63,954 bases of DNA, filler included, from an uncultured bacterium (GCA_964609495.1; 3 parts of 3 records of this genome joined end to end with filler, not necessarily neighbours in it), one strand, 5' to 3'. Shown: positions 1-36,553, numbered from the whole stretch's first letter. Translations and numbers: made by a program. The notes: generated by a model from the letters alone, not told the origin.

Positions 1-55
1 GGAGGGTGTAATACAAAGTAAATTAGATCTTAGATCCCAGATTTTATATGCATCC
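1..55 (-). repeat. Truncated inverted copy of the dispersed repeat at 11083-11250 (contig edge)
   Basis: Reverse complement of 1-55 matches 11083-11137 at 54/55 nt. Confidence 0.9.
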
Positions 56-3052: not shown

Positions 3053-4102
3053 TTATCTCCTCGCCTTCCTTTCGTATTTTCCGCGAAGCTGTTTGCATAC
3101 CGCATCCAATCCCACATCTCTTTCGGCTCTTATCACAGTGGCAAAACCTCTTTCCTTCAAGATCTGTTGAAATTCATATACTCTATTTCTACTTGGACGC
3201 TCATAATCAGTCCCCTCTACCGAATTGAAGGGGATCAGATTGATATTGCAGGGGATCCCTTCTAACAGGTCCGCCAATCTATGCGCTTGTCCTAGCTCAT
3301 CATTTACCTCTGATATTAAATTATACTCAAAGGTTATCCTTCTGCCCGTTCGCCTCACATAATAGCGGCATGCTTCTAATAGCATCCCCAAAGGGTATCT
3401 CTTGTTAATTGGCATCAATATATCCCTTAGTCTATCAGATGTAGCGTTAAGGGATACCGCTAACCTTACCTGTAAACCTTCCCTGGCGAGATGTCTTATC
3501 TGTGGTGCTAATCCACAAGTGGAGACGATTATATGGCGAGCACCTATATAGAGTCCTTCTGGAGAGATAAGTAAACGGATAGCTTTAAGGACATTATTAT
3601 AGTTAGCAAAGCACTCTCCGATCAGGACAATATTAGAGATAGTTCGATTGTTTTCTCGTTCCCAAAGATCATCGCGTATGGTTAATACTTGATCCACTAT
3701 CTCCGCCGCAGTTAAATCTCTGATAAGCCCCTCTTTACCTGTAACACAGAAATCACACTGATAAGCACATCCTACTTGACTGGAGATACAGGTCGTTGTC
3801 CTGCGATCATATAAAAGGAGGACGCTTTCTATTGTATTGCTATCCTCCAATTCGAACAGATATTTAATTGTATCTTTCGAGGGAGTTTCACTCTTACCCT
3901 TTATCTTTAACCGAGATATATAAGCTATCTCCTCGAGCTTCGCCCTTAGAGCTTTCGAGAGGTCGGTCATCTCTCTGCTGGAGGTAACTCCTCGCTTATA
4001 TATCCACCTCATCGTTTGAGAAGCTCGATATTTTGGCTCGCCAAGAGCGAGAAAGAACTCTTCTAGCTCCCTCCTTGATAGACCTTTCAAATTCAACTTC
4101 AT
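3053..4102 (-). CDS. rlmN: RlmN-family radical SAM RNA methyltransferase with a divergent active-site loop
   Basis: CISSQVGC-x3-C-x2-C, RDLTAAEIVDQV, RRITFEY, NLIPFN, C-terminal DAVCKQL; MGMGEP is replaced by LIGEC. Confidence 0.85.
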   Translation of the reverse strand: MKLNLKGLSRRELEEFFLALGEPKYRASQTMRWIYKRGVTSSREMTDLSKALRAKLEEIAYISRLKIKGKSETPSKDTIKYLFELEDSNTIESVLLLYDRRTTTCISSQVGCAYQCDFCVTGKEGLIRDLTAAEIVDQVLTIRDDLWERENNRTISNIVLIGECFANYNNVLKAIRLLISPEGLYIGARHIIVSTCGLAPQIRHLAREGLQVRLAVSLNATSDRLRDILMPINKRYPLGMLLEACRYYVRRTGRRITFEYNLISEVNDELGQAHRLADLLEGIPCNINLIPFNSVEGTDYERPSRNRVYEFQQILKERGFATVIRAERDVGLDAVCKQLRGKYERKARR

Positions 4103-5340
4103 CTTAAATCAGGCGCGGAGGAAGTGCCTACTCTCCTCTCTACTAAAAGGGTGCCGAATCTTTCTAACAAAAGCAACTCTTCCGCTTTCGCTGAACTATG
4201 TATTTTAGTTCCGTTAAGTCCCCTAAGAGCGAAATAACCTGATCTTCTTCTCCCAAAGATAAAACACTCCATCCCCTTGAACAAAACTTTGTCAAAACGC
4301 TGGAAGCCCTTGATAAATCTATCCGAGGTGTTCCTTATATGACTTCTATTCCCCTTGAATAGTTTGCGATTACATTTCCTTACCCGTCGGAGGAAATAAT
4401 ACTCTGAGGCTCGCTTTTGCCTACTTCCACCCGCTATGACGAAAGCATCGTTCCGATGTGATTTTGGCAATCCTAGGGCTATTCTGCCTTGTTTTGTTAG
4501 ATAGCCATAGGTATGGGAAACAACATTGCCCCTCTCCCTTAACTGATTTACCAATTTCCATCTAACCGAAGACATAAAAGTCTCTGCCTTGAAACTCCGA
4601 TCTGGTTTAATCCTGAGTTTCAACTCGCCTTTGGACACCTTCTGGTGGCATGTAGAACATAATGTTATCAAGTTATCAGGGCTATTTCCCCCAGTCTGCC
4701 TCGTCTCGATATGATGGACTTCTAAGACCGGGTCCTTAGACTGGCCTTGGCAATGTTGACAGGTATGATTATCTCGGTAGAGAACATATTCCCTAACATT
4801 CCAAAAGCCTTTTTGCAGACCATTCTGATATTCAATACCTGATATATTCGGGTTCTTGATCTTTTGAATATCAAACGCTGAGACTTCTACGATGATCTCA
4901 GTAATAGGTAATATCTCCTTAACCTTCTCAATTATCTTGAGGTGGGAGTCTAATTTGTGCTGAATAGAGGGAGCTAACCAACCAGCTGGCTTCTTGCGAT
5001 TAAGGAAACGAGCTTTCCGATGCCAGGTTTTCCGATTTCTTCTTGCTCTCCGATACGCTCTCCTTTCCGAGTTGAGCTTCACCAGGTCGTCTCTTAATCT
5101 CACCTCTGCTTGGAAGACTTCCTCTTTTTCGGTGATAGCAGATAGACCAATACTGCCATAACCTGCATCTACTCCTAGAGTAATGGGCTGTCTATAGCCA
5201 GATGAACCATAAAGTAGTTGAATAGTAAAGGGTGTTCTTTTCACTACTTTTGCCTTGCCTTCTTTTAGGAGAAGTCTTGCTCTTCTTGGACGGCATGGCA
5301 TCAAAGGTTTTCCGTGTTTGTTAATAACGAACACTAACAT
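4099..5340 (-). CDS. iscB: RNA-guided endonuclease IscB
   Basis: N-terminal PLMP domain, RuvC-I GVDAG, Arg-rich bridge helix RRAYRRARRNR, RuvC-II IIVE, HNH with CxxC pairs (EVHH…NLITLCSTCH), RuvC-III SHRNDA. Confidence 0.97.
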   Translation of the reverse strand: MLVFVINKHGKPLMPCRPRRARLLLKEGKAKVVKRTPFTIQLLYGSSGYRQPITLGVDAGYGSIGLSAITEKEEVFQAEVRLRDDLVKLNSERRAYRRARRNRKTWHRKARFLNRKKPAGWLAPSIQHKLDSHLKIIEKVKEILPITEIIVEVSAFDIQKIKNPNISGIEYQNGLQKGFWNVREYVLYRDNHTCQHCQGQSKDPVLEVHHIETRQTGGNSPDNLITLCSTCHQKVSKGELKLRIKPDRSFKAETFMSSVRWKLVNQLRERGNVVSHTYGYLTKQGRIALGLPKSHRNDAFVIAGGSRQKRASEYYFLRRVRKCNRKLFKGNRSHIRNTSDRFIKGFQRFDKVLFKGMECFIFGRRRSGYFALRGLNGTKIHSSAKAEELLLLERFGTLLVERRVGTSSAPDLR

Positions 5341-5587
5341 AGAGTGTTCCTCCTTGCGGAGTTAGAGCCGCATCGGGACTGTTAAGGGAGGTTTTTAAGC
5401 TCGCCACACTATCCCTACCTCTCAGGATTGTTTAATGACGAACCACAGTTGCTACAGACGTGCGGAATATCCGTAGGTGTGTATGTAATTTCTCTCCCTT
5501 AACTGCTGCCTATATCCAGGCCCCCTAGTCAACCAGGACTTGCTCTTGCAAGCCCCTACTGATTGAAAATCAGTAGGGGTTGTTGAC
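4103..5587 (-). mobile_element. Non-autonomous IS200/IS605-superfamily IscB element (omegaRNA + iscB, no tnpA), inserted between the rlmN leader and its ATG
   Basis: One boundary is the GTCAAC start of the omegaRNA (5587) and the other abuts ATGAAG of rlmN; the joined flanks (…GTAAAACG|ATGAAGTTGAA) match the uninterrupted paralogous site at 10991-11020. Confidence 0.85.
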
Positions 5588-5617
5588 CGTTTTACACGCG
5601 CTCTGTTTTCTATCATC
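5341..5617 (-). ncRNA. IscB omegaRNA (HEARO-type): ~30-nt 5' guide (5617-5588) followed by scaffold (5587-~5350)
   Basis: Scaffold begins GTCAACAACCCCTACTGATTTTCAATCAGTAGGGGCTTGCAAGAGCAAGTCCTGGTTGACTAG (GTCAAC/GTTGAC pairing, nested hairpins) directly upstream of iscB; 5' end inferred from the promoter. Confidence 0.9.
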
Positions 5618-5666
5618 TAATCAATTATACTATAGAGTAGGGCAAAAGTCAATACTAAGTGATTCA
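5588..5666 (-). repeat. Direct repeat copy 1 (promoter + leader); partner at 11002-11082
   Basis: ~80 bp match with 4 substitutions and a 1-nt indel. Confidence 0.95.
5624..5652 (-). promoter_or_regulatory. Sigma70-type promoter driving omegaRNA-iscB-rlmN-purA
   Basis: TTGACT-17 bp-TATAAT on the minus strand. Confidence 0.85.
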
Positions 5667-5698
5667 ATTCGAGGAGGTCGAAGGTTCTGCCAGCGAAC

Positions 5699-5736
5699 AA
5701 AAAAGGGTGATCTCATTGATATATCAGAGATCACCC
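5699..5736 (-). terminator. Intrinsic terminator of the glycosyltransferase operon
   Basis: GGGTGATCTC…GAGATCACCC stem followed by T6 on the minus strand. Confidence 0.75.
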
Positions 5737-5874
5737 ACTTAAAAACTATGATGATTAATATTACTTTTTCATAACAGCTAATTTTTTGGATATTCCTAGC
5801 GGATTCCACATTAGCTTTGGCAGAGAGTTGACGGAAATCCGAAGCAAAGAGCCTGCTCTAAACAACATCTTTGG

Positions 5875-6873
5875 TCATCCCTCTTTAAAGGGAACTTTTG
5901 AACCTTGAGCTCTATTGCCTGCAAAAGTTCCCTTTTTAACTCCTCTTCGGAAGTAGAATTGAAGGAGTTGGCTATATATCACGCCTGAGAATCTGTTGAA
6001 GCCTAAATAAGGGACTATAGCTTTGAAGAGTGGCTCGGTAAATTCATTGAATACAGCTCGTTTCGCTATCTCTTTGAGCATAACCACTCCTCTGGCATCG
6101 GATGGAGATAGGTAGAAGGCATCTCCTCTCGCCTCAGGAGCTACTCTAGTCAAAATTACTGCGGCTCTCCCTGCAGTCTCCATACGCTTGCGATAGGCTT
6201 CATAATCCATAGGATGATAGTGATATCCTATCGCCTTCGTATCATATATAAACCTTGTCCCTCTTCTGGCTAATCTATATGCCATCTCTGTATCTTCCCA
6301 GGTGGAGACCGGAGGGGGCCAGAAGTTCTCTTGATCAAACATTCCAATATCTATAAGAAGCTTTCTCCTTACGGATGCATTACAAGTGAGGAGGTACTTA
6401 CCTGATACGTCCCCCTCCTTCTCCGGGTAGGAGAAGGGATAGCCGAGGCTCTGCATAAGGTTCATAAAAGCGGTCTCTATCTCAGGGTAAAATAGGACTT
6501 TCCCTAACACCGCTATATCCTCATCTGGATATTCCTCATAGTACTTTATATGTTCTCTTAATAGATTGCGATCCGCTATTATATCATCGCCAATGAATAG
6601 GGTGACCTCTCCCTCTGCACTTCTCACCCCGGTATTCCTAGCTGCGTTACCTCCACTGTTACGCTCATGTCTAAAGTACTTGATCTTAACTTCTGCCTTG
6701 GGGATGATCTCCCTCACCATCTCCTCAGTTCCATCCTGCGAGCAATCATCAACTATGACGATCTCAAATTCATCCTTGGGGTAGGTCTGTTCAAATAGCG
6801 AAGTCAAGCACTTCTTCAATATCTCCTTTCGATTATAGCTTGGTATTATCACACTTAAGGGTAAACTACTCAT
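5875..6873 (-). CDS. GT2 family glycosyltransferase
   Basis: SVIIPSYNR, IVDDCSQDGT, ARNTG, GDD, EDTE motif. Confidence 0.92.
   Translation of the reverse strand: MSSLPLSVIIPSYNRKEILKKCLTSLFEQTYPKDEFEIVIVDDCSQDGTEEMVREIIPKAEVKIKYFRHERNSGGNAARNTGVRSAEGEVTLFIGDDIIADRNLLREHIKYYEEYPDEDIAVLGKVLFYPEIETAFMNLMQSLGYPFSYPEKEGDVSGKYLLTCNASVRRKLLIDIGMFDQENFWPPPVSTWEDTEMAYRLARRGTRFIYDTKAIGYHYHPMDYEAYRKRMETAGRAAVILTRVAPEARGDAFYLSPSDARGVVMLKEIAKRAVFNEFTEPLFKAIVPYLGFNRFSGVIYSQLLQFYFRRGVKKGTFAGNRAQGSKVPFKEG
5887..5935 (+). repeat. ~50-bp palindromic REP-like repeat (family A), in frame in the GT2 3' end
   Basis: AAAGGGAACTTTTG-AACCTTGAG…GC-AAAAGTTCCCTTT; related copies at 19726, 22847 and 36554. Confidence 0.8.
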
Positions 6874-6950
6874 TATGCTCCTTTTTAGGTGATTAGGTGA
6901 GCAGTTACTTCAAATCTTTATCTCACTTTGTCTTAGATCTAAATTTATTC

Positions 6951-7646
6951 TTATTCCGATTGAACTATAATAAACGAGTAATCTAAACCTCTTCTCCACT
7001 TGAGGCTTCTTCCCCATTTGATAAGCTTTTCCTCAACTAAAGACAGACCTAGATATCGCATGCAATTGATTAGAAATCCATGAGAGAATATCCAAATCCA
7101 TCCCGAGGGATCACCAAATTTCTTCGACGGATATATATCGCCATATTCTTTGAATTTTTCGGAGAAGGGAGCAAAAAGCAAATCACTGCGGTTCCTGGAT
7201 TTACTAATCACTGGATTCGCAAAAATGGCTTTCTTTGCGGAAAAGGAATCGATGATATTAGATATGAAGTGAATTGGCTCTGGCTGATGAAGAAGGATAT
7301 CATAGCATATTATCGCATCTGCTGGATACTCAGCTCCTAACGCCCTGAGCCCACCATCTATCATTGATTTATAGAAGTCCATTTTGATATACCGAACATT
7401 CGAAAAGTTGTCCTTGATCTCGTTGAAACGATTACTTAGATAATCGTCAAGTAGAATGACATCTTTCGCTCCTTCAGTCTCAGAGAGGAAGCTATAGAAG
7501 CCATTGCACTTCCACATTCCCCCAACATCAACTACACGCTCAGCAGGAAACAGTTTATGGATCCATTGAGCCTTCTCCCTGATTAGTGCAGGCATTTTAT
7601 CCTCTTGAAAGCAAAGGCTATAGAGATCCTCACAAGTTTCCTTCAT
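6951..7646 (-). CDS. Putative SAM-dependent methyltransferase-like protein
   Basis: VVDVGG motif-I-like sequence, DAIICYDILLHQPEP; RBS GGAGG. Confidence 0.55.
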   Translation of the reverse strand: MKETCEDLYSLCFQEDKMPALIREKAQWIHKLFPAERVVDVGGMWKCNGFYSFLSETEGAKDVILLDDYLSNRFNEIKDNFSNVRYIKMDFYKSMIDGGLRALGAEYPADAIICYDILLHQPEPIHFISNIIDSFSAKKAIFANPVISKSRNRSDLLFAPFSEKFKEYGDIYPSKKFGDPSGWIWIFSHGFLINCMRYLGLSLVEEKLIKWGRSLKWRRGLDYSFIIVQSE

Positions 7647-7768
7647 TATCTTTTCCTCCTTAATTCAATCAATATTCTACTATTTGCTAACTCTCAGATC
7701 TGAGATGGTTTAATTCAATCTAATCGTTCAATTCCGCAATGTTCAAAGGTGGACCCCCTTTTTAGAAA

Positions 7769-8584
7769 CTAACTTCTCTTCCAAGCTTTAACATAGATAT
7801 CATTACAGAAGATCAAACTAAGTGGATATAATGTAGAGATAGGCCAAAACCTAGATAATAAAAAATATAATTTATCTTTGATAGTAGGTTTAAATATATT
7901 TCTCAATTGAATAGTATAATCAGAACCAGCTTTATCCAGATACTTTCGAATGGAGAAAGGCGTTTGTTCATTGATATGTAGCAGATGCTCGCACTCCGTT
8001 CTCGGATCTAGCGAAGTAGGAAGATAATCTTTCCCCAATATCAACTTGATAGCTGAGTTCACATACCTTGTATAGAATCTGTATCCATAATCATAAAAGA
8101 GTCTATTGGGCATAGTGTGTATTATCAGCCTTCCTTCGTCCTTCAATACTCGATAGATCTCACTTAGTATCGACTCAACTTCCTCGGGATATAGGTGCTC
8201 GATCACATCGAGAAAGAAGATCACATCAAAGGAGGAGGATTCGTATGGCATCTTCTTCGCATCGGCTAACTCTAATACCACCCTCTTTTGAGCCTCCTCT
8301 GATAGATCGGAGATCGCCCTTTTGGCTAGATCAATGGCATCCTTAGAATAATCGATACCAATTACATAAGCTCCCTGTTTTGCACAATACCGAACTATCT
8401 CTCCTCTTCCACACCCTATATCTAATACCCGACATTCACTGGTAACATCTGCCAAACTCAAGCTTTTTGTCAAACGAGGTGTCAGTTCATCTCCCTTATA
8501 ATCCTTAAACTCAGGACCTCCTTCAGCCAACTCCAGATAGTATTCCTCGTCATAATAGTCGCTTGGGACAGATTTTTCCTTCAT
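7769..8584 (-). CDS. Class I SAM-dependent methyltransferase
   Basis: VLDIGCGRG, GIDYS, SFDVI…DVIEHL, RVLK.EG. Confidence 0.9.
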   Translation of the reverse strand: MKEKSVPSDYYDEEYYLELAEGGPEFKDYKGDELTPRLTKSLSLADVTSECRVLDIGCGRGEIVRYCAKQGAYVIGIDYSKDAIDLAKRAISDLSEEAQKRVVLELADAKKMPYESSSFDVIFFLDVIEHLYPEEVESILSEIYRVLKDEGRLIIHTMPNRLFYDYGYRFYTRYVNSAIKLILGKDYLPTSLDPRTECEHLLHINEQTPFSIRKYLDKAGSDYTIQLRNIFKPTIKDKLYFLLSRFWPISTLYPLSLIFCNDIYVKAWKRS

Positions 8585-8599
8585 AAGGGGAATTACCTC

Positions 8600-10165
8600 C
8601 TATCCCGATAGACGTCCTATCGTGCTTGTATAGGCTATTCTAGCATAGTGATTTAATTGAGAGATATCATACTCGTCCAGATAAGAAGATTTTAACATAA
8701 CAACTATATAAAATGCTGTATAAGTCAAGATAGCTAGCAATATACCCTTTAGTCCTCCTGCTACCCTTTCGAGGAAGAAGAATAGAACTCCCCCGCTGAT
8801 ACAGGTAATTAAAGGACGGGTTAGAGCTTTCCAAAAAGTGTCTTGGGGAGATATCTTATGCCTTGTATGGAAGCTGACGATGAGGTAAAAATTGCCCAGA
8901 GTCAAGGCTATAACTATTCCTAATATTGTCCCTATATATCCGAACTTCATGGTCAAAGCGATACCTAATATCATATTCAGACCGATTCCGATCAAAGTAG
9001 CATATGCCCCATAACGAGGATTCCCCATTCCCGTATCTATCAAAAACCCTGGTCCAGCCAGCAGATTGATGAAGTTACCTATCGCCAATAATTGAAGCGC
9101 TAAAGCGGTCATCTCGTAGCCAGGACCAAGCCAGAGCCTAACTAGTGGTTGAGCAAAGACCGCGATGAAGATGAAGAGCGGAGCGCTGAACAAGACCATA
9201 TACTTAAGAGCGCGATAGTATAATCCATACAATCTTTGAAAATCTCGCTTTGCGTAGATCTCAGAAGCCGCGGGCATAATAGGGTTGATGATCATTAAGG
9301 GGAAAGCTCTGATCTGATTAATTATATTAGAAGCAGCTTCGAAATAAGCGACATAGTTCAAGTTCGTGAAGTAGCCAAGTATGATCTTACTCAATTGGTT
9401 GAGGACTAAACCACCTAAGCCGACGACCTGCATCTGCACACTGAATCCTAAGAGCCTCTTTACATACTTTGCTCTGAAGAGAAAGGGATTAATCCTCAGG
9501 GCCTTAAATTGTATCTTGGACATAAGTCCGTTAAAGATAATAGCTACTGAAATTGCTATCGCATTTACTATAACTAATCCTCTCAACCCATAACCCAAAT
9601 TCAAAGCGATAATAGTTCCGATAGCATTAACGATGACGCTCGATATAGCGGCGATATTCGTCAAATCCATCCGTTGTAATCCATTGAGGAGGGAGATGAA
9701 GATGCTGAAAGTCAAATTCGCGGTGAAGATCAAGATAGCCCCAGTTAGCACAAAGCCTATATCGTTTTTGAACTCTCCACTTCCAATATGAGAGGAGACT
9801 CCCCCTCCTATATTGAAGAAATTGACGATGATCCACTCCTTCAAGAAGAGAAATAATACGAAGCTAAGAGCTCCCATCACCAGGCAGATCACGAAATAGG
9901 TATTGAGCAGAATGTTGATCTGACGATCGTCTTCCTTAGCCTTATACTCAGCAATGAATTTGACCAAAGCTGCTCCTAATCCCAAATCGAGTACCTTTAC
10001 ATAGTTCGCAAAGGCGCTGGCTAGAGCCCAAATCCCAAAGCCTGTAGTTCCAAGTCTCGATATTATGAAGGGGGTCATAATCAGGATTATGGGAAAAGAA
10101 ATGACCCCCCGTAAGATGTTAAAGAAGGAATTTTTAACTATCTTTTTTGATAAATCTTGCGTCAA
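8600..10165 (-). CDS. Oligosaccharide/polysaccharide flippase (Wzx-like, MOP superfamily)
   Basis: Roughly 14 hydrophobic segments, PFIISRLG..GFGIW, DLGLG.ALVKFIAE, P..SE motif. Confidence 0.88.
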   Translation of the reverse strand: MTQDLSKKIVKNSFFNILRGVISFPIILIMTPFIISRLGTTGFGIWALASAFANYVKVLDLGLGAALVKFIAEYKAKEDDRQINILLNTYFVICLVMGALSFVLFLFLKEWIIVNFFNIGGGVSSHIGSGEFKNDIGFVLTGAILIFTANLTFSIFISLLNGLQRMDLTNIAAISSVIVNAIGTIIALNLGYGLRGLVIVNAIAISVAIIFNGLMSKIQFKALRINPFLFRAKYVKRLLGFSVQMQVVGLGGLVLNQLSKIILGYFTNLNYVAYFEAASNIINQIRAFPLMIINPIMPAASEIYAKRDFQRLYGLYYRALKYMVLFSAPLFIFIAVFAQPLVRLWLGPGYEMTALALQLLAIGNFINLLAGPGFLIDTGMGNPRYGAYATLIGIGLNMILGIALTMKFGYIGTILGIVIALTLGNFYLIVSFHTRHKISPQDTFWKALTRPLITCISGGVLFFFLERVAGGLKGILLAILTYTAFYIVVMLKSSYLDEYDISQLNHYARIAYTSTIGRLSG

Positions 10166-10169
10166 ATTT

Positions 10170-10928
10170 TTATCTCACAAGGATTGCTAGAGTAGTTCCA
10201 GCAATATGACGTATTTCAAATTCGGGGTGGTGTTTTTGAAACTCGTTTAGTGCCTTTGTAACGCCATTCCAGGCATTATAGTCGTGCCAGACAATAACTC
10301 CCTTGCCTTGCCTCAGTAGTTTTAGGGCCACTTGAGTGTCGTTCACTACATAATCGTAACTATGATTTCCATCGATAAAGATAAAATCGACTCTATCTAA
10401 ATATGGTGAATAATCAAACTTGGCAGAATCTCCGTAAAGTTGAACAATCTTTCCTTTCTCAGGCAACTCTTCCTCATCTTTTGAAGTGAAACGATACCCA
10501 GGTGGACTTTTATCGATATTTTGTAGAGGAAGGTCAAGCGTATATACTATAGCTTCATCGGGAGAATTTATCGCCAGGTTAATCGTCGTTCTCCCGTCAA
10601 AGGTGCCTATTTCAAACAGGATTTTGGGATTATATCTCTTGACCAAAGCGTTAATAACTAAAGTTTCATATAATAAGACATTTATTCCGCGCTTGGTGAT
10701 TGGCTCTGCAATCGAGAATCTGCTATTCCCTATGACATCTTCAACAGCGGCTGATTTCAGTTTGGGGATTTCACGCCCAAATCCGAAACCGTAATAAAAA
10801 CAGGTCTCTCTTAGAAACCCCCTTCCTTTGACGAAGAGAATACCAAAGGTCAAAGAAAAGAGGAATAGGAAGAAAGCTGAGATGTAGATTAAAAAAAAGT
10901 CGACTCCTCTTTTGACAATTGCTCCCAT
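10170..10928 (-). CDS. Class I SAM-dependent methyltransferase (Methyltransf_24-like) with N-terminal membrane anchor
   Basis: FEIGTFDGRT, GDS, DFIFIDGNHSY, VWHDY. Confidence 0.85.
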   Translation of the reverse strand: MGAIVKRGVDFFLIYISAFFLFLFSLTFGILFVKGRGFLRETCFYYGFGFGREIPKLKSAAVEDVIGNSRFSIAEPITKRGINVLLYETLVINALVKRYNPKILFEIGTFDGRTTINLAINSPDEAIVYTLDLPLQNIDKSPPGYRFTSKDEEELPEKGKIVQLYGDSAKFDYSPYLDRVDFIFIDGNHSYDYVVNDTQVALKLLRQGKGVIVWHDYNAWNGVTKALNEFQKHHPEFEIRHIAGTTLAILVR

Positions 10929-10990
10929 CTTTATCCTCCTCGAGCCTTATTTAAACAGCACTTTTTTGGGTGCTCCTCTCTTATCTCCTC

Positions 10991-11082
10991 TTCAATTTCA
11001 TCATTTTACACCCGCTCTGTTTTCTATCGCCTAATCAATTATACTATAGAGTAGGGCAAAAGTCAATACTAAAGTGATTCAA
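10991..11082 (-). promoter_or_regulatory. Direct repeat copy 2: sigma70 promoter, leader and remnant of the rlmN start, now upstream of the flippase operon
   Basis: TTGACT-17-TATAAT identical to 5624-5652, followed by …GTAAAATG|ATGAAATTGAA (rlmN begins ATGAAGTTGAA). Confidence 0.88.
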
Positions 11083-11250
11083 GGATACATATAAAATCTG
11101 GGATCTAAGATCTAATTTACTTTGTATTACACCCTCCCCCTATCCCCCTCCCATCGAGGGAGGGGGGACGAGAAATAATGCGAAGCATAGACTTAAGCTC
11201 TATCTCGATGTTCCCTCTCCCCTCGTGGGAGAGGGCCAGGGTGAGGGGGA
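11083..11250. repeat. Dispersed double-hairpin REP/MITE-like element (family C)
   Basis: CCCCCTCCC-ATCGA-GGGAGGGGG and CCCTCTCCC-CTCGT-GGGAGAGGG hairpins with CACCCT…AGGGTG outer arms; related copies at 34478-34584 and at the window start. Confidence 0.85.
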
Positions 11251-11331
11251 GTTATAACTCGATCTGAAATCATTACGAAGTAAAGACTTTTTGATGCCCG
11301 ATTCTATATGCTTCCCTGCAAATCCAACTTC

Positions 11332-11360
11332 TTGCTAAAAGTACTCAAAAATGCTATAAT
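11332..11360 (+). promoter_or_regulatory. Sigma70-type promoter with extended -10
   Basis: TTGCTA-17-TATAAT with TG at the extended -10 position. Confidence 0.65.
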
Positions 11361-11445
11361 ATTTAGAAAATAGGAGGCAAAGAGGAAGTATATCAGGAGA
11401 AGGTGCGAAAACGTAAAGAATGTTAAACTAAAGGGGATTGATCTT

Positions 11446-14304
11446 ATGCTCAAAAAAACTATATTATTCTCTATAATCCTTTTATATCTGTTCCTATCAC
11501 CCGCCTACTTAATAGAAGCATCCCCGATAGAGTGGCGGGTTTCCTCTGATGGACTCTACGGAGGGACAGTTACCTCCTTAGCCTCGGTGAAAGGGAAGGA
11601 TAATATCATCTATGCGGGAACGATTAATGCAGGAATATTTAAAAGCACTGATGGAGGAGAGAGTTGGCAAAAGGTGAACAACGGATTGCCATTAATAATA
11701 CTATCCGATAAGACAGTATATGATTTAGCTACCGCTGGAGATAATATAGTATATGCCGCGATAGGTGGATATTTCTTCAGAAGCACTGATGGAGGAAAAA
11801 GTTGGACTAACTACCGACAAGTTGAGGGATTAACTGGAAGATTCCAAAATATTAATCATCTACTCCCAGCAGGAGATAGCGGAGAGGTGATCTATGCGGG
11901 TAGCAGAGGGGAAGGTCTCTTCAAAAGCGTAAATGGAGGCTTGAGCTGGATTAAGCTGAACTACCAGGGGAATTTCATTACTGGATTAGCCGTTGATAAT
12001 GATAATACCGTTTATGTCTCCTCCGCTTACGGGTTAATAGCTAAATCTACCGATGGAGGAAAGAGTTGGCGGAGAATAGATAATAGTTTACCCCGACAGG
12101 AAGGGAATATACAATCCATAGTGATCGCGGGAGCCAGTAGAGATAGACTATACGTAGCTATCTATGGTGGCGGTGTTTTCAAAAGCGCTGATGGAGGCAA
12201 AAGCTGGATCGGTCTCAACGAGGGATTACCCGATTTGTGGGTTAGGAAGGTGCTTGCAGTTGGGAAGAATGGAGGAACGCTCTACCTCAGAACGGAGAGC
12301 GGCTATACCTATGTAAGGGATGAGGATAAAGGAGACGATAGCTGGAGAAAGTTCGACCTCGAAAAGATCAACTATCCTATCCTATCTTTGCTCACCGTTG
12401 GAGATCAAGGGAATATAATCTATGCTGGATGCGGAAGCGGAGGAATCTACAAAAGCACTGATGAAGGCGACTCCTGGGAGGAACGAAATAGAGGCTTGAT
12501 TGCTCTCGATATAAAATCAATAGTGATCTCTTCCACTTCCAAAGTGTATTTGGGAACTTATGGGGCCGGGGTATTCCAAGCTGAGGATACTGCTTGGAGA
12601 ACTATGAACGAGGGTTCCAAGGATATTTACATAGAGAAGATAAAATTAGACGAAGATGAGAACAATCTCTATCTAATATCTCTCAGCGGTAGAATCTATA
12701 AGAGAGGGTTAAGTGAGGAGAAATGGGAGATAGTGAGTGATAATTTACTCAATAATTATCTATTAGATATCATACCGCCGAATGAGAAGGGATTAAGCTA
12801 TCTTGGAATATATAACTTCGGAGTGCTAAGAAGCGAGGATGGAGGGGCAACTTGGAGTCCCTCCAAGACAATACCCCCTGGTATCGAGAGAATGACAATC
12901 GTTAAAAATGGTGATATTATTTATATCAATAGTGGCTATAGGGATATCTACAGAAGCCCCGATGGAGAAGGAAGCTGGCAGAAGATGACCACCGAGGGTT
13001 TGCCAGAGGATAATATCATATCTCTGACTGCAACCGAGAATGGAGGAAAAGTGTTCGTTATAATTCCCAGCTACGGGATATACGGATACTTCGCCGATGA
13101 AGAGGGATGGCAAAAACTTCCTCATCCTAGCGAGAGAAGGGATTGGGAGGGGATAAAAGTTATTGGAGAGAAAGTGTATGTGTGGAATGATACCGAAGTA
13201 TTCTCCAGCCCTCTCGAAAGTTCGGAATGGACGGAGATCGCTCCTAATAAAATATCTGGAACTATAACTGCTTTAACAGGGAAGGATAACACATTATATC
13301 TAGGAACCCAGATAAGTGGGATATATAAATTTGAAAGGGGAAGATGGGAAAAGGCAAATAAAGGATTACCTCAAGTACTTCACTCTAGGATTCCCGAAGT
13401 AGCTGGTTTGGCAGTAACAGGAGAGGAAGCTCAGATAATATATGCGGTGTTATATGAATCGGGAAAGGGTAAAATATATAAAAGCACTAATGGAGGAAAA
13501 TCTTGGAAGGGATTGAAAGCCCCTAATTTCTCCTCTCTATACTCCATAGAGGCTTCAGGCGCCAAGGGGAAGGAAGTATATATCACAACTAATTCTGGAC
13601 TCCATAGAAGCCTCGACGGAGGTGAGAATTGGCGTTCATTAGAGAGCGGATTACCCAGAGAAGCCGATACCAGATTGTTATCCCTAATATCCCTTTCAGA
13701 GGGGAAAGATATTCTCTACTTAACGGTCTCAAGTTTGAGCGGAGGTTCTCAATTATATAGAAGCCTCGATAAAGGAGACAACTGGACTCTCGTCAATCCT
13801 TATCCCCAGGATGTATCCGCTCTCCTAGCTGAAAGAGGAAATGAGAGAATCTACGCAGGAACGTTCGCAACCGGTGGTTTCAAGAGCGGCGATCGAGGGA
13901 ATAATTGGCAAAAGATGAATGGCTTGCCTGCTAAGGAGATAATATATGCACTTATTAAGTCTCCAAAGGATAATAATACGCTTTATGCAGGAACTAGCCT
14001 CGGCTTCTTCAGAAGCGGGGATAAGGGGGAAAACTGGGATATCCTCGATAATGGTCTTCCCCCTCAAGCGAGGGTGAAGAAGCTGACAGCAGTTATTTCC
14101 GAGAGCGGTGCCGAGATCCTCTTAGCCGCGGTCGGGGCGAAGAATGGCGAAATCTGTGAAGTATTCAAAAGCGAGGATGGGGGAAGCAATTGGAAGAAGT
14201 TAGGAGAGTTCGCAGAGGAGATACAATCTCTAGCCCTGAGTCCAGCAGGAGACTTAGCCTATGTGGGAACTAACGTAGTGTATATCGGGCGATTAACTAA
14301 GTGA
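11446..14304 (+). CDS. Secreted BNR/Asp-box repeat beta-propeller protein (VPS10/YCF48-like)
   Basis: N-terminal signal peptide and more than a dozen (K/R)SxDGGxxW repeats. Confidence 0.88.
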   Translation: MLKKTILFSIILLYLFLSPAYLIEASPIEWRVSSDGLYGGTVTSLASVKGKDNIIYAGTINAGIFKSTDGGESWQKVNNGLPLIILSDKTVYDLATAGDNIVYAAIGGYFFRSTDGGKSWTNYRQVEGLTGRFQNINHLLPAGDSGEVIYAGSRGEGLFKSVNGGLSWIKLNYQGNFITGLAVDNDNTVYVSSAYGLIAKSTDGGKSWRRIDNSLPRQEGNIQSIVIAGASRDRLYVAIYGGGVFKSADGGKSWIGLNEGLPDLWVRKVLAVGKNGGTLYLRTESGYTYVRDEDKGDDSWRKFDLEKINYPILSLLTVGDQGNIIYAGCGSGGIYKSTDEGDSWEERNRGLIALDIKSIVISSTSKVYLGTYGAGVFQAEDTAWRTMNEGSKDIYIEKIKLDEDENNLYLISLSGRIYKRGLSEEKWEIVSDNLLNNYLLDIIPPNEKGLSYLGIYNFGVLRSEDGGATWSPSKTIPPGIERMTIVKNGDIIYINSGYRDIYRSPDGEGSWQKMTTEGLPEDNIISLTATENGGKVFVIIPSYGIYGYFADEEGWQKLPHPSERRDWEGIKVIGEKVYVWNDTEVFSSPLESSEWTEIAPNKISGTITALTGKDNTLYLGTQISGIYKFERGRWEKANKGLPQVLHSRIPEVAGLAVTGEEAQIIYAVLYESGKGKIYKSTNGGKSWKGLKAPNFSSLYSIEASGAKGKEVYITTNSGLHRSLDGGENWRSLESGLPREADTRLLSLISLSEGKDILYLTVSSLSGGSQLYRSLDKGDNWTLVNPYPQDVSALLAERGNERIYAGTFATGGFKSGDRGNNWQKMNGLPAKEIIYALIKSPKDNNTLYAGTSLGFFRSGDKGENWDILDNGLPPQARVKKLTAVISESGAEILLAAVGAKNGEICEVFKSEDGGSNWKKLGEFAEEIQSLALSPAGDLAYVGTNVVYIGRLTK

Positions 14305-15271: not shown

Positions 15272-15300
15272 TTGCTATTTGGATATAGCTATGATATAAT
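15272..15300 (+). promoter_or_regulatory. Sigma70-type promoter of the methyltransferase gene
   Basis: TTGCTA-17-TATAAT with extended TG; supports ATG at 15344 as the true start. Confidence 0.65.
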
Positions 15301-15343
15301 AGAGAAAACTCCTATTGCGATAGAAAGGAGTGGAGTATATATT

Positions 15344-16969
15344 ATGAGCGATTGGAAGAACAAGCTATATTTTGGGGATAACCTTGATATAATGCGTAAG
15401 TATATCGCAGATGAAAGTGTAGATCTGATATACCTAGACCCACCTTTCAACTCTAAAGCTAGCTATAATGTGCTATATCGAGAAGCTAATGGCAGTCAAT
15501 CTGCTGCTCAGATAACCGCCTTTGAGGATACCTGGCATTGGGATATAAAAACACAAGAGGCTTATGAGGAAGTGGTAAGGCAAGGTCCCAAGAAGGTAGC
15601 TGACCTGTTGCAGGCACTGCGAGAATTCTTAGGTACAAATGATATGATGGCTTATCTAGTTATGATGGCAATTCGACTGGTAGAGCTACATCGAGTACTG
15701 AAACCAATGGGTAGTCTGTATTTGCATTGTGATCCAACTGCTAGTCATTATCTCAAGATTGTGTTAGATCAAATATTCGGTGTTAAGAATTTCAGAAACG
15801 AGATCTCGTGGCGCCGTTCCAACCCCAAAAGCCATCACATCACCAATTTTGCAAACTGTAGAGATACTATTTTCAGGTATTCTAAATCTGAATATGCCAT
15901 ATTCAACAAGATTTATAGCGAGCACGATCCCAAATATGTAGAAAAGGCGTATCGGTTTATTGACGAAAATGGAAGACGATATCGGCTACTTCCCCTGCTA
16001 AATCCCAACAAAGATCGTCCTAATCTCACTTATGAATTCTTAGGCATCACTAGAGTTTGGCGCTGGACAAAAGAAAGAATGAAAAAAGCCTATGCAGATG
16101 GTCTGATTGTGCAACTAAAACCGGGTGCTGTTCCTCAATATAAAAAATATCTGGATGAGTCTCCGGGCAGAACCATAACAAATGATTGGCACGACATTAA
16201 ACCTACTTCGGGCAAAGAATCACTTGGCTATCCTACCCAAAAACCAGAGGCGCTACTTGAGCGAATCATTAGGGCGTCATCAAATGAAGGTGATATCATA
16301 CTTGACCCTTTCTGTGGATGTGGTACTACAGTCTCAGTGGCGGAGCATCTTAACCGGCGTTGGATAGGAATAGATATTACTCACCTAGCTATTACTCTTA
16401 TAAAACACAGATTAGAAGATACTTTTGGAGCAGAGTTATCTCCTTATGAAGTTCTTGGCGATCCTAAAGACCTGCGAAGCGCCGAAGCCCTAGCAGAACA
16501 AGACCCTTATCAATTTGAGTGGTGGGCTATTGGCTTAGTCGATGCCTTTCCAGTAGGCAAACAGAAGAAGGGTGCTGATAGAGGTATAGATGGTTATATA
16601 AACTTTTTCGATGATGATCCCAAAAAGGCTAAGAGCATAGTCATCCAGGTTAAGAGTGGTCATGTTACCGTGAGTCAGATACGTGATCTCAGAGGAGTAT
16701 TAGAGCGAGAAAAGGCTGTAATTGGAGCTTTTATCACACTAAGGAAACCGACTAGAGAAATGCTAAAGGAAGCAGCTTCAGCAGGTTTTTATGAGCCTAA
16801 AAAATATCCCGGCAGTCGCTTCCCCAGACTACAGATTCTTACCACTGAAGATTTGCTAGCAGGTAAGCAGTTAGAATACCCAAGACAGGGAATAGGAACA
16901 TTCAAGAAAGCTGAACGTAAGTATAAAGGGAGTAAGACACAAATTAGCCTTCTGTCAGATGGTGCTTAA
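15344..16969 (+). CDS. Beta-class DNA adenine methyltransferase fused to a C-terminal Mrr-like restriction endonuclease domain
   Basis: DLIYLDPPF (motif IV), YPTQKPEALL, LDPFCGCGTT (motif I), C-terminal ADRGIDG…IQVKSG. Confidence 0.9.
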   Translation: MSDWKNKLYFGDNLDIMRKYIADESVDLIYLDPPFNSKASYNVLYREANGSQSAAQITAFEDTWHWDIKTQEAYEEVVRQGPKKVADLLQALREFLGTNDMMAYLVMMAIRLVELHRVLKPMGSLYLHCDPTASHYLKIVLDQIFGVKNFRNEISWRRSNPKSHHITNFANCRDTIFRYSKSEYAIFNKIYSEHDPKYVEKAYRFIDENGRRYRLLPLLNPNKDRPNLTYEFLGITRVWRWTKERMKKAYADGLIVQLKPGAVPQYKKYLDESPGRTITNDWHDIKPTSGKESLGYPTQKPEALLERIIRASSNEGDIILDPFCGCGTTVSVAEHLNRRWIGIDITHLAITLIKHRLEDTFGAELSPYEVLGDPKDLRSAEALAEQDPYQFEWWAIGLVDAFPVGKQKKGADRGIDGYINFFDDDPKKAKSIVIQVKSGHVTVSQIRDLRGVLEREKAVIGAFITLRKPTREMLKEAASAGFYEPKKYPGSRFPRLQILTTEDLLAGKQLEYPRQGIGTFKKAERKYKGSKTQISLLSDGA

Positions 16970-19288: not shown

Positions 19289-19741
19289 ATGTCTTTGAAG
19301 GATGAACTCTCGGAAGCAATGAAAACGGCGATGCGCAAAGGTGATAAAATGGAGCTATCTGCCATAAGACTTCTCCGTTCTGAGATTAGAAATAAGGAGA
19401 TAGATATAGGCAGGGACATTGATGATGAGGAGATAGTGGCTTTAATATCTAAAGGGATAAAGAAGTGCCAAGAAGCCATTGAGCAGTTCAAGAGGGGAAA
19501 TCGGAGCGATCTGGTGGAGAAAGAGGAGAAGGAGATAGAAACTTTAAGACGCTTCCTTCCCCGCCAGCTTACCGAAGATGAACTCAAGGATATAGTAACT
19601 CAGACTATCGAGGAGGTAGGTGCAGATTCTCCCAAGGATTTAGGTAGGGTAATGGCTGCAATTATGCCTAAGATCAGAGGTAGAGCCGAGGGGAAGATAG
19701 TTTCTAAGATGGTTCGAGAGACTTTAAAGGAAACTTTTTAA
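19289..19741 (+). CDS. yqeY: GatB/YqeY domain protein
   Basis: MKTAMRKGDK..LSAIRLL, IEQFKRGNR.DL, LPRQL, DLGRVM; follows rpsU. Confidence 0.92.
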   Translation: MSLKDELSEAMKTAMRKGDKMELSAIRLLRSEIRNKEIDIGRDIDDEEIVALISKGIKKCQEAIEQFKRGNRSDLVEKEEKEIETLRRFLPRQLTEDELKDIVTQTIEEVGADSPKDLGRVMAAIMPKIRGRAEGKIVSKMVRETLKETF

Positions 19742-19774
19742 CCTTATATATTTTTGGAAGCAAAAGTTTCCTTT
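19726..19774 (+). repeat. REP-like palindrome (family A) overlapping the yqeY stop codon
   Basis: AAAGGAAACTTTT…AAAAGTTTCCTTT. Confidence 0.82.
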
Positions 19775-22846: not shown

Positions 22847-22898
22847 GAAAAGGAAACTTTTTCACCTTGAGTTTTATGGGAAGCAAAAGTTTCCTTTC
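22847..22898 (+). repeat. REP-like palindrome (family A)
   Basis: GAAAAGGAAACTTTTT-CACCTTGAGTTTTATGGGAAGC-AAAAGTTTCCTTTC. Confidence 0.82.
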
Positions 22899-25526: not shown

Positions 25527-27149
25527 CTAGCTCCAAGCACAACGGAAACCTAAGATATCTAATCTAGTGCTAGGGCTATAGCGATAACGATAGGTGATGC
25601 GAGCATAACTTCCCGCATCGAGATAAGAGCCTCCGCGCGCTACTTTATACCTTCCATCTCTTGGACTTAGCGGATTGCGATCAGGGGCGAGGCGATAATA
25701 GTTCTCATCATACCAATCCGCAACCCATTCCCAGATATTCCCTGCCATATCAGTTACTCCATAAGGGCTATCACCTTCAGGAGAGTGTCTGCCGACCGAG
25801 GTAGTATCTCCAATTCCAGCGGGAAGGGTATTACATCTATCCTTATCGAAATTATCTCCCCATGGATATCTCCGACCATCGCTACCCCGAGCTGCCTTTT
25901 CCCACTCCGCCTCGGTAGGCAGACGCTTCCCCGCCCACTCTGCATAAGCCTTGGCATCCTCCCAACTTACTCCAACTACCGGATGATCATCCTTGCCAGA
26001 GGGATAAGTTCCCTTTATCCAGCCCTCGGGATATTTATGCTTTGTATCCCTTATAAATTCTGTGTATTCTCTATTGGTCACTGGATGCTCGTCTATATAA
26101 AAATCATCGAGGTAGATCTTCTTTTTGGGTCTCTCATCTGGGCTATCATCGCTTCCCCTGATGAACTCTCCCGCGGGAATGTGGATCATATCAGGAGGAG
26201 GGATCCTCCCAGAAGTAGCAGTTGATATAGAAGGTTGAATTACTCCACCCTCTAACTCCATTCGCATTTCATCCACAGTTCGATATCTCTTCTCCGCCTT
26301 CAAACTCAGCGCTTTAGCTACTATCTGACTTAGACGAGGGGAAACATTCGGATTCATACTCCGAACAGGAGGAAAGGAGAAAGGAGTCCTTTGTCTAGGG
26401 TCCTGCCCAGTAAGGAGATGATGCATCGTTGCTCCCAACGAATAGACATCAGATCTCGGCTCTGCCATCCCTTGATATTGCTCTGGAGGAGCGTAACCAG
26501 GCGTTCCGATCATAGTCCCTTTGACTTTGGGGTCAAATACCTTAGCTATCCCGAAATCCACTAGTATCGCCTTATCAGCGGAGTTAATAACTATATTGGA
26601 TGGCTTGATATCTCTATAGATGATGATCTGAGGATGACGATTATCGGGATGTTCGAAATTATGCAGATAGCTTAGGACACTACAAAGTTGCAGAGCCCAA
26701 GCGACAACTCTCTTTTCGGGCAAGCCTCTTGGATATCCAGCTACTATCTTCTCCAAATCCTTCCCCTCTACATAATCCATAACCAGATAGTATCTTCCTG
26801 CTTCGATGAAGTAATCGTGGACTATCGGAAGGTGGGGATGGCGAAGGATGGAGAGTAATCTAGTCTCCTCGCGAAATCTCTTTATCGCGTAATCCCTCTC
26901 CTGCTGATCGGTGAAGCGATCGATCATCTCCTTGATAACGAAGGCTTTGTTATCCAACCTCGCATCAAGCGCCTTATATACATTTCCCATCCCGCCAGCG
27001 GAGAGGATCGAGGTTATGATATAACGACCCTTATCGATCGCGGTATTAACTGGGAGTTGCTTACTCAGGGGGATAAGTCTAATTCCACAGTTGGAACAGA
27101 AGCGAGCCTGGGGATGATTATCGAAGGAACAATTAGGACAAAGTGGCAT
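25527..27149 (-). CDS. Zinc ribbon-Ser/Thr kinase-FGE/SUMF1 (C-type lectin-like) domain protein
   Basis: CPNC…CSNC; GGMGNVY, VIKE, YRDIKPSN, DFG, GTPGYAPPEQ; HPVVGVSW, RLPTEAEWEKAARG, DMAGNIWEW, GFRC. Confidence 0.95.
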   Translation of the reverse strand: MPLCPNCSFDNHPQARFCSNCGIRLIPLSKQLPVNTAIDKGRYIITSILSAGGMGNVYKALDARLDNKAFVIKEMIDRFTDQQERDYAIKRFREETRLLSILRHPHLPIVHDYFIEAGRYYLVMDYVEGKDLEKIVAGYPRGLPEKRVVAWALQLCSVLSYLHNFEHPDNRHPQIIIYRDIKPSNIVINSADKAILVDFGIAKVFDPKVKGTMIGTPGYAPPEQYQGMAEPRSDVYSLGATMHHLLTGQDPRQRTPFSFPPVRSMNPNVSPRLSQIVAKALSLKAEKRYRTVDEMRMELEGGVIQPSISTATSGRIPPPDMIHIPAGEFIRGSDDSPDERPKKKIYLDDFYIDEHPVTNREYTEFIRDTKHKYPEGWIKGTYPSGKDDHPVVGVSWEDAKAYAEWAGKRLPTEAEWEKAARGSDGRRYPWGDNFDKDRCNTLPAGIGDTTSVGRHSPEGDSPYGVTDMAGNIWEWVADWYDENYYRLAPDRNPLSPRDGRYKVARGGSYLDAGSYARITYRYRYSPSTRLDILGFRCAWS

Positions 27150-27160
27150 ATTCTAGACCT

Positions 27161-28027
27161 CTATCTGAAACCAATCCTATACCATAACTCGAGAACAAGT
27201 AGAAGGTCATAAAGCGAGTGCGTGTAAGCGGCTATGCCGAAACCTCGATAGATGAATAGTAGGGAGAACACCAAACCAGCGTTGAATCTGAATAGGAAAG
27301 ATTTAAGAGTGAATATATCGCTAAAAGCTCCTAGGTAGTGGGAGAGAGAGAAGAGAAAGGCTCCTAAAACTATAGCTAATATCCTAGAGCGAGTTTTAGT
27401 GAGTTGAGGTATCTTCGTAAAGGCGAAGGCTAGCGCGCTTACCAAGAGAAGACGATAGACCAATTCCTCGTATATCCCCGCTCCTAGGGAAAGCACCAGA
27501 CTAGTTCCCAATCCTAGTCTTATAGGCTTAGCAACAAATATGGAGGTGATCATTCCTACTACTATACCAAATAGAGAGGCATAAAGCAAACTTTCGGCGA
27601 GCATAAGCATAAAATATTTAAGCTTTATTACATATCTTCTTCTTGTAATCTCATACCAGATGAAAATAGCTGAGGCTATCACTAAAGCCAGGGTGAAATA
27701 GAGAAAGCCATAGATCCCAAAGAGCGCCAGGATACGCTTTATAAGGACATCGGAGGCATTTCTGATCCCTGCGAATTCGGAACGATTGACGATCATCGCT
27801 CCTATTTCATAGATGAAGAGCAGAGGAAGAACGAATATCACGCTGTAAAGAGGGGTCCTGGAGAGGTTAAAGTAATCCTCCCATGAGGTCTTTCTCTCTC
27901 TGTTATCACTAAGAGGATCTATGATCTCGCTATCTTTACCATCCTTCGGTAGAGCATACCCACATTTACCACAATATTTAGCAGAAGAGTGATTCAAAAA
28001 ATCGCAATTGGGACATATATTATACAT
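27161..28027 (-). CDS. Zinc ribbon-CPBP (Abi/CAAX type II) intramembrane metalloprotease
   Basis: CPNC…CGKC; EELVYR, FSLSH and HSLYD motifs in a multi-transmembrane protein. Confidence 0.88.
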   Translation of the reverse strand: MYNICPNCDFLNHSSAKYCGKCGYALPKDGKDSEIIDPLSDNRERKTSWEDYFNLSRTPLYSVIFVLPLLFIYEIGAMIVNRSEFAGIRNASDVLIKRILALFGIYGFLYFTLALVIASAIFIWYEITRRRYVIKLKYFMLMLAESLLYASLFGIVVGMITSIFVAKPIRLGLGTSLVLSLGAGIYEELVYRLLLVSALAFAFTKIPQLTKTRSRILAIVLGAFLFSLSHYLGAFSDIFTLKSFLFRFNAGLVFSLLFIYRGFGIAAYTHSLYDLLLVLELWYRIGFR

Positions 28028-29240: not shown

Positions 29241-29258
29241 TTTATCTCTCCTTTATCC

Positions 29259-30356: not shown

Positions 30357-30415
30357 TATCGCCTCCTGTTCAATTCTCTTTTATTCATCATATATATCTC
30401 AGTGGCACTTCCTCG

Positions 30416-33892: not shown

Positions 33893-33902
33893 TGAATTTC
33901 AA

Positions 33903-34442
33903 CTACTTTATTATAACCACCGGAGTCCCAATGGGAACTATATCTACCAGCTCTTCTATATCCTTATTGTGCATTCTAATACAACCGTGAGAGATCGCCT
34001 TCCCGATGGAGGAGGGATCGTTAGTTCCGTGTATTCCGTAGTGAGGCTCGCTTATCCCTATCCAACGCGTTCCCAATTGATTATTCTTGTTCTTCTTATA
34101 AGGTGATATCGCTTTCCCCTCCCAATACCAAACAGGATCGGTTACCTTATTTATTATCTCGAATCTCCCCACCGGCGTCTCGCTCTCAACTGCCCCGATA
34201 GCAACTGGATATATCTTCAATATCTCCTGTCCTTTATATAGAATCAAGCTGAAGGTGGATTTGGCGATGACGATTCCATAGCCATTCCCTATCGCCGGGG
34301 AAGGGATCGCTTTTAGTGGCTCGGGAATAATGCTCTCCTCAGATAATCCGTCCGATATGGAGAAGATATTGATCGCTAGGATGGATATGATCGCTAATAG
34401 TAGATTTATACTCGACTTTCTATACACTCTTGTACCTTCCAA
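33903..34442 (-). CDS. L,D-transpeptidase (YkuD family), secreted
   Basis: YPVAIG, TPVG.F.I..K, GIHGT, SHGCIRM, GTPV; signal-like N-terminus. Confidence 0.93.
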   Translation of the reverse strand: MEGTRVYRKSSINLLLAIISILAINIFSISDGLSEESIIPEPLKAIPSPAIGNGYGIVIAKSTFSLILYKGQEILKIYPVAIGAVESETPVGRFEIINKVTDPVWYWEGKAISPYKKNKNNQLGTRWIGISEPHYGIHGTNDPSSIGKAISHGCIRMHNKDIEELVDIVPIGTPVVIIK

Positions 34443-34477
34443 ATGGAGAGCAGATTAGGCTTTGAACTCACCTTAAT

Positions 34478-34584
34478 CACCCTCCCCCCTAACCTCCTCC
34501 CATCAAGGGAGGGGGGAATAAAGGGCTTTAGTTCAATCTCGACGTTCCCTCTCCCCTCGTGGGAGAGGGATAGGGTGAGGGGGA
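34478..34584. repeat. Double-hairpin REP/MITE-like element (family C)
   Basis: Near-identical hairpins to 11130-11250 with a shorter spacer. Confidence 0.85.
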
Positions 34585-34642
34585 GAATCATATCTTGAAC
34601 TAATAATCGAAAAACTAAGAATAGGGAATTATTTCTTTGAAA

Positions 34643-36520: not shown

Positions 36521-36553
36521 TTCTCCAGCATTAAGCGTGATTCAACACCTCAC

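Follow-up and report, generated by a model that had tools for sequence, protein, structure and literature searches.

An IscB element at the start of rlmN and a second copy of its flanking promoter region at a polysaccharide cassette

The DNA analysed here is a joined stretch of 63,954 nt from an uncultured bacterium (GCA_964609495.1), referred to below as the window; all coordinates are those of the window, and the features of the locus all lie on its minus strand. Next to rlmN it carries an IscB nuclease gene and the corresponding omega RNA. The promoter region that adjoins the omega RNA recurs further upstream, in front of a polysaccharide cassette, and there contains a near match to the IscB guide followed by the target-adjacent motif (TAM) ATGAA. 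A preliminary description of this DNA had singled out the guide and its near match as a candidate RNA-guided regulator.

The IscB element and its junction with rlmN

Among solved structures, the protein encoded by the element gave its best matches to the IscB chains in the PDB (E 3e-50). It has a split RuvC domain with an RRXRR/PLMP N-terminus and an inserted HNH domain, and its residues D58, E152, H295, D298 and H210 align to D61, E193, H340, D343 and H247 of OgeuIscB, the RuvC and HNH catalytic residues of that enzyme (Kato et al., PMC9640706). All five were invariant in the aligned sequences (4/4), in agreement with the preliminary description, in which the catalytic residues had appeared intact. 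A HEARO-type omega RNA is encoded on the same strand, directly upstream of the IscB open reading frame (ORF). In 9/9 homologous loci the similarity began at the GTCAA that starts the scaffold and the flanks upstream of it were unrelated, so that the sequence abutting the right end (RE) is specific to each locus, and the guide and the promoter are host DNA. At its left end (LE) the element abuts the TAM of the family, ATGAA at 4102..4098. In 8/8 homologues for which a stop codon was found, a G+C-rich hairpin was followed after ~20 nt by ATGA, which was ATGAA in six of them when read by eye. The RE motif GTCAA differs from the TAM ATGAA at two positions. In its domain content, its catalytic residues, its omega RNA, the place of its guide and its TAM, the element agrees with the IscB/OMEGA members of the IS200/IS605 family and belongs with them; it departs from them only in the left-end hairpin.

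The arrangement of the insertion is the textbook one. IscB guides lie outside the RE, and transcription must begin outside the element; the scaffold itself comes from the RE of the transposon, transcribed sites are favoured for insertion, and the TAM of GstIscB is TTCAT (ATGAA on the other strand), from which its RE motif is two positions off (Meers et al., bioRxiv 10.1101/2023.03.14.532601). The 27 nt that the preliminary description took for the guide do abut the HEARO scaffold, but the published guide length is 16-17 nt (PMC9640706), and the guide is put here at ~16 nt.

The ISGst5-type IscB elements of Geobacillus stearothermophilus are alike in being non-autonomous IS200/IS605 elements with an omega RNA scaffold at the RE and no TnpA nearby, in having a guide outside the element that is transcribed by the host, and in the TAM TTCAT/ATGAA; the catalytically dead mutant of GstIscB, D58A/H209A/H210A, shows the same residue numbering as the window protein (bioRxiv 10.1101/2023.03.14.532601). 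Unlike these elements, the one in the window is without an LE hairpin, its IscB stop codon overlaps the start of a housekeeping gene, and a paralogous empty site with two mismatches lies 5.4 kb away. OgeuIscB (PDB 7XHT and 7UTN) shares the aligned RuvC and HNH catalytic residues and a HEARO-type omega RNA, but has 496 aa against 413 aa in the window, and the HMMER alignment covers residues 2-326 only. A scan of genome contigs with the window IscB gave 80 loci from many phyla, the best of them ~70% identical, and neither a close relative nor shared synteny was found among those 80. No TnpA, integrase or recombinase genes are encoded in the 64-kb window.

At the junction with rlmN, the TGA stop codon of IscB is contained in the flanking ATGA and shares nucleotides with the start codon of rlmN (4102), and no Shine-Dalgarno sequence was seen in the 30 nt inspected upstream of rlmN. 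With this layout rlmN would be translationally coupled to IscB, and selection for rlmN expression could help to keep the IscB frame open.

A metagenome scan with RlmN yielded a single 1594-nt contig (L081) that includes 98 nt upstream of rlmN and encodes an RlmN 93% identical as protein and 94% identical as DNA. The left end of an IS lies in it at the same ATGAA before rlmN, which means that the insertion is either old or recurrent at the rlmN site. L081 has a left-end hairpin (12-bp, z -3.4), as have the eight homologues with a stop found, and the hairpin of L081 strongly resembles the RE hairpin of the window element. Compared with L081, the loss of the hairpin in the window is an in-frame gap of 30 nt. 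Contigs from other runs, designated X1 to X4, come from salt-marsh or marsh metagenomes that possibly belong to one sampling campaign, so that their independence is incomplete; X4 has 21 different letters where the 30-nt gap lies. A subterminal hairpin is found in the window element at the RE only. Because TnpA requires both hairpins in IS200/IS605 elements and the one at the LE is gone, this copy, although a member of the family by descent, is probably immobile.

Positions 1-103 of L081 were also inspected. The IscB C-terminal coding region in them is far more diverged than rlmN, and the ATGA overlap with rlmN is kept. That coding region holds the left-end hairpin plus a second partial copy of its 3' half.

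The repeated promoter region and the guide-target match

The promoter region next to the guide is one of two direct repeats. Minus-strand 5667..5588 (80 nt, copy A) aligns with 11082..11002 (81 nt, copy B), and the homology resumes beyond the IscB element, where ATGAAGTTGAA (4102..4092) corresponds to ATGAAATTGAA (11001..10991) through ATGAA-TTGAA. An identity of 6/7 after ATGA was found at 5/674 ATGA sites in the window, both compared sites counted. The copies differ by five substitutions and one indel in 92 columns. Both contain an identical TTGACT-17-TATAAT promoter (36/36, a figure to which no chance expectation is attached) inside a 42-nt exact core, and the two promoters, at 5652..5624 and 11066..11038, are the best two sigma-70 matches in 3900-11500 (11/12). 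Together the copies bracket the 5.4-kb polysaccharide cassette, whose operon closes with a strong terminator immediately ahead of promoter A. Since the promoter, the leader, the TAM and the first rlmN codons are all present in copy B, it resembles an empty IscB insertion site. The 29-mer of the promoter had no matches (0) in viral contigs.

The features of the locus are listed with their coordinates in Table 1. A foreign origin of the cassette was considered on the basis of G+C content, but values of 0.38-0.43 against 0.41-0.54 in the flanks offer too little contrast to support one.

Table 1. Positions of the features that make up the IscB locus and the cassette upstream of it.
Feature	Position	Strand	Details
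rlmN	3053..4102	-	Pfam RlmN_N (match from residue 4), Radical_SAM
Repeat copy A, right part	4092..4102	-	TAM ATGAA (4102..4098), which is the rlmN start, and next codons
IscB ORF, 413 aa	4099..5340	-	Pfam RRXRR 7e-67, HNH 1.2e-08
Non-autonomous IS200/IS605-family IscB element	4103..5587	-	RE boundary 5587/5588, LE boundary 4103/4102
Omega RNA scaffold (HEARO)	5361..5587	-	Rfam RF02033, 124.8 bits (gathering score 83), model 1-211 of 211
RE hairpin, 5' stem of omega RNA	5577..5551	-	-22.3 kcal/mol, z -7.0
Guide, 16 nt	5588..5603	-	GAGCGCGTGTAAAACG, directly 5' of HEARO scaffold
Repeat copy A, 80 nt, promoter and leader	5588..5667	-	-35 box 5652..5647, -10 box 5629..5624
Intrinsic terminator of cassette operon	5699..5736	-	10-bp G+C-rich stem, then TTTTTT; -19.4 kcal/mol, z -4.15
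Polysaccharide cassette, five genes	5875..10928	-	Pfam
GT2 (glycosyltransferase family 2) glycosyltransferase, fifth cassette gene	5875-6873	-	
231-aa protein without assigned family, fourth cassette gene	6951-7646	-	
Methyltransferase, third cassette gene	7769-8584	-	
Wzx-type flippase, second cassette gene	8600-10165	-	
Methyltransferase, first cassette gene	10170-10928	-	
Repeat copy B, 92 nt, promoter, leader, TAM and rlmN-start relic	10991..11082	-	-35 box 11066..11061, -10 box 11043..11038
Near-cognate target with TAM	10997..11017	-	GAGCGGGTGTAAAATG (11017..11002), then ATGAA (11001..10997); 14/16 match

The pair of 27-mers given in the preliminary description was recovered as quoted, at 5614..5588 and 11028..11002 of the minus strand, with 25/27 identity, mismatches at positions 2 and 11 and, in copy B, an intact ATGA, extended to ATGAA, directly after the 27-mer. 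The placement of the target downstream of the -10 box of the methyltransferase-flippase-GT2 operon was equally correct, the box belonging to the sigma-70 match at 11066..11038. When 27-mers with up to three mismatches (<=3) were searched for, two matches were obtained in the window and none in any of 100 shuffles. The match itself is real, but it is not a pair that stands alone: it forms the inner part of the ~92-nt direct repeat, whose homology extends 53-54 nt upstream of the 27-mer. As the guide of an IscB is the flank of its insertion site, a paralogous flank that bears a TAM is automatically a near-cognate target, and selection is not needed. The guide-target similarity thus appears to be fully explained by the ~92-nt duplication, as identity by descent, and is not evidence for a new regulator. 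Mismatches were not enriched in the guide (2/16) relative to the rest of the repeat (4/76 columns; Fisher p = 0.28).

Counted from the TAM, the mismatches place a guide C opposite A at position 2 and a C opposite C at position 11. The ATGAAA of copy B fits NWRRNA, the published TAM of OgeuIscB (PMC12660989). With that enzyme, single mismatches at positions 1-14 abolished cleavage in vitro, and positions 1-8 were proposed as the seed (PMC9640706). Both mismatches in the window fall within the TAM-proximal 14 nt, and copy B is therefore expected to be immune to cleavage. By this analogy it is most likely refractory to cleavage by IscB, and stable R-loop binding at copy B is doubtful, since the seed is broken at position 2. 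The preliminary description had offered two interpretations, and of these an escape from self-cleavage fits the position of the mismatches and the intact nuclease residues, while the domesticated regulator found no direct support. Judging from the position of the -10 box, transcription from copy A would start near 5617, ~30 nt before the scaffold, and the target in copy B would cover roughly +15 to +35 of the cassette operon.

Guides were called by a regular expression at 35 other IscB loci, 34 of which were usable and one a miscall, and flanks of up to 10 kb were searched. A site with up to two mismatches (<=2) followed by ATGA was found at 0/34 of these loci; applied to the window, the script does recover copy B.

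Explanations for the near-cognate site

We favour, at a probability of about 0.7, a reading in which IscB inserted in the ordinary way at the rlmN start and the promoter region of rlmN was duplicated ahead of the cassette, the two mismatches letting the copies coexist. The element with IscB and its omega RNA would have entered at the ATGAA that is both the TAM and the rlmN start, separating rlmN from its strong sigma-70 promoter, and the host DNA beside the right end would serve as the guide and be transcribed from the host promoter. The second, empty copy of the host segment (~92 nt), 5.4 kb upstream, would drive the five-gene cassette, and it presumably goes back to the sequence that lay upstream of rlmN when the element had yet to insert. 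The two TAM-proximal mismatches would allow an active nuclease to coexist with copy B, whether they arose by selected escape or by drift. If this explanation is true, IscB insertions borrow host promoters, and duplicating an insertion site builds a self-target into the genome, one that has to diverge if the cell is to survive. It would also follow that guide-target matches adjacent to OMEGA systems need to be checked for flanking homology before they are given a regulatory interpretation.

Several observations weigh against so plain an account. It offers no mechanism for the 92-nt duplication, for which Campbell-type integration, a long target duplication and microhomology at TTGAA were considered. 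The LE region of the element is hairpin-less (z +0.58 for the last 61 nt, with 142/200 shuffles folding equally well), and the three members of the 90%-identity IscB cluster, which are 95-96% identical and all of 413 aa, share this hairpin-less C-terminus together with intact catalytic residues. The relative next after this cluster is 77% identical. Among the variants listed, which were drawn from four metagenome runs, 5/5 in IscB were synonymous versus 3/7 in the cassette genes (four being non-synonymous); those in rlmN (7/7) and purA (2/2) were synonymous as well. The near-cognate site has the correct TAM, and a complex bound to it, at ~+15..+35 from a promoter, could get in the way of RNA polymerase. 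Lastly, in one of the X2 contigs the copy B leader runs on into the flank upstream of copy A, a junction that does not follow from the assembled order alone.

Some of these points would suit an exapted repressor or tuner, in which an IscB that is immobilised, though still intact in its catalytic residues, binds copy B without cutting, at +15..+35 and by means of the 14/16 complementarity and the ATGAA, and lowers transcription of the cassette. The correct TAM speaks for such binding, as does the overlap of the site with the footprint of the initiating RNA polymerase. The ORF has remained intact across the 95-96% identical variants even though the LE hairpin was lost, its variants are synonymous as given above, and transcription from a strong host promoter would begin ~30 nt ahead of the scaffold. 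In chromatin immunoprecipitation sequencing of catalytically dead IscB, moreover, off-target binding was mainly driven by the TAM, with little seed requirement (bioRxiv 10.1101/2023.03.14.532601). Set against this, the match is accounted for by the duplication, its mismatches are unpatterned, and the C.A mismatch at position 2 falls inside the proposed seed (PMC9640706). The conservation of the ORF can also be explained by translational coupling to rlmN and by selfish maintenance of the kind seen with homing endonucleases, and no comparable nearby site was found at the 34 other loci. The guide is in the same sense as the mRNA of the operon and would pair with the template strand, which is the weaker orientation for roadblocks by dCas9. 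We consider a regulator of this kind unlikely, and we hold out little hope for the broader proposal that IscB is part-way to domestication, in which it would be immobilised by the loss of the LE hairpin, have its ORF kept by purifying selection and rlmN coupling, be expressed from a housekeeping promoter, and bind the seed-mismatched, TAM-flanked site without cutting so as to tune a surface-glycan cassette.

The element was also compared with known RNA-guided regulators. Like the window IscB, TldR is an RNA-guided protein of transposon origin whose guide RNA lies next to it and matches a TAM-flanked site at a promoter, and the integrity of the transposon ends is lost; TldR proteins come from TnpB and combine a decayed RuvC with fully matching guides and conserved new gene associations (bioRxiv 10.1101/2023.11.30.569447). 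The window IscB differs in that its nuclease is intact at all five catalytic residues, its guide matches at 14/16 positions next to a TAM, and its association with the cassette is due to duplication. By the features that define the TldR family it is not a TldR-like repressor. The Cas9-scaRNA system of Francisella novicida, to which the preliminary description had also pointed, is alike in that a catalytically competent nuclease acts with incomplete complementarity to an endogenous site in a 5' untranslated region or promoter. Pairing there is contiguous next to the protospacer-adjacent motif, enough for binding and too short for cleavage. The pairing in the window, unlike this, is broken within the seed, at position 2, and contiguous TAM-proximal pairing is not found. 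The statement that no IscB regulator had been described agrees with our literature search, in which no natural IscB-based regulator was found, and in the available parts of a 2026 review of OMEGA systems Cas12 and TldR are the only domesticated forms mentioned (PMC13565253). If a regulator were nevertheless present, it would be the first natural IscB-based regulator of transcription and the IscB counterpart of TldR. In that case IscB, from which Cas9 descends, would prove open to exaptation for gene control without loss of its nuclease competence, and the locus would be a natural place to begin work on the origin of RNA-guided regulators from transposon nucleases.

If copy B were still nicked or cleaved to some extent, the repeat pair might instead be a recombination hot spot, at which the 5.4-kb cassette is lost, circularised or amplified in tandem more often than otherwise, with RNA-guided variation of surface glycans as the outcome. 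Such a circle or a tandem duplication, with a unit of 5414 nt, is expected to give the junction seen in the X2 contig mentioned above (614 nt, depth 5.3), where 10873-11030 is joined to 5617-6072. That junction, though, has low depth and crosses the 42-nt exact repeat, which is longer than the assembly word size (presumably k = 31), and among the contigs listed the X2 piece beside the copy A guide (5179-5577) stops before 5578-5616; an artefact of the graph is as likely as a real junction. In addition, the two TAM-proximal mismatches should block cleavage, and homologous recombination between 92-nt repeats works without a nuclease. We regard a nuclease-driven hot spot as very improbable. The same contig offers an alternative order of the two copies and so bears on the further possibility that the assembly produced the two copies by a mis-join, as the preliminary description itself had allowed, or joined them in the wrong order. 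The window begins inside a repeat (1-55, inverted versus 11083-11137), and the outer side of copy B (11060-11266, with depth spikes) is bridged by none of the contigs listed. The differences between the copies argue the other way, as each set of variants recurs with its own unique flank: X4 reproduces copy A with its flanks (5568-6155) with 0 differences, and X1 (10381-11060) and X2 (10873-11030) link the copy B leader to the methyltransferase gene, again with 0 differences. We give a mis-join hardly any chance.

Other repeats and genes of the window

Several repeats lie close to the locus. The 55-nt inverted repeat (98%) has one arm in the first bases of the window (1-55) and the other adjoining copy B (11083-11137); the start of the contig probably falls within a dispersed repeat. 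A 60-nt direct repeat (90%), at 11192-11251 and 34526-34585, has the palindrome-like motif CCCTCTCCCC...GGGAGAGGG...GGGTGAGGGGG. Contig depth across 10843-11259 climbs to 100-560 in all four runs, which suggests that the motif of the 60-nt repeat is widespread in those communities. A joint in an X3 contig (11315 to 5674, side 38, 7 letters between) was discarded as too short and repeat-prone.

Four copies of a hairpin-forming repeat of 49 nt, AAAGGnAACTTTT ... AAAAGTTnCCTTT, were found at 5887-5935, 19726-19774, 22849-22897 and 36555-36603. They are positioned at gene ends and resemble repetitive extragenic palindromic elements or terminators; the first copy overlaps the 3' end of the GT2 ORF. 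In this first copy, the X1 and X3 contigs have 36 different letters at 5914-5916.

Further from the locus, two paralogous genes that fuse an N6_N4_Mtase domain to an Mrr-type endonuclease lie in inverted orientation at 15272-16969 and 54633-56204, with 80-85% DNA identity over ~1.1 kb, and a third N6_N4 methylase is encoded at 48409-49332. A segmental duplication (50489-54439 versus 56341-58931) consists of several direct repeats of 82-96% identity, and a gene for a solute-binding protein is duplicated within it (53121-54323 and 56451-57653). The region 25527-44069 is a dense cluster of genes on one strand that encodes Ser/Thr kinases, one of them fused to a PP2C phosphatase domain, proteins with FHA domains and zinc ribbons, a VWA protein and an FGE-sulfatase fusion.

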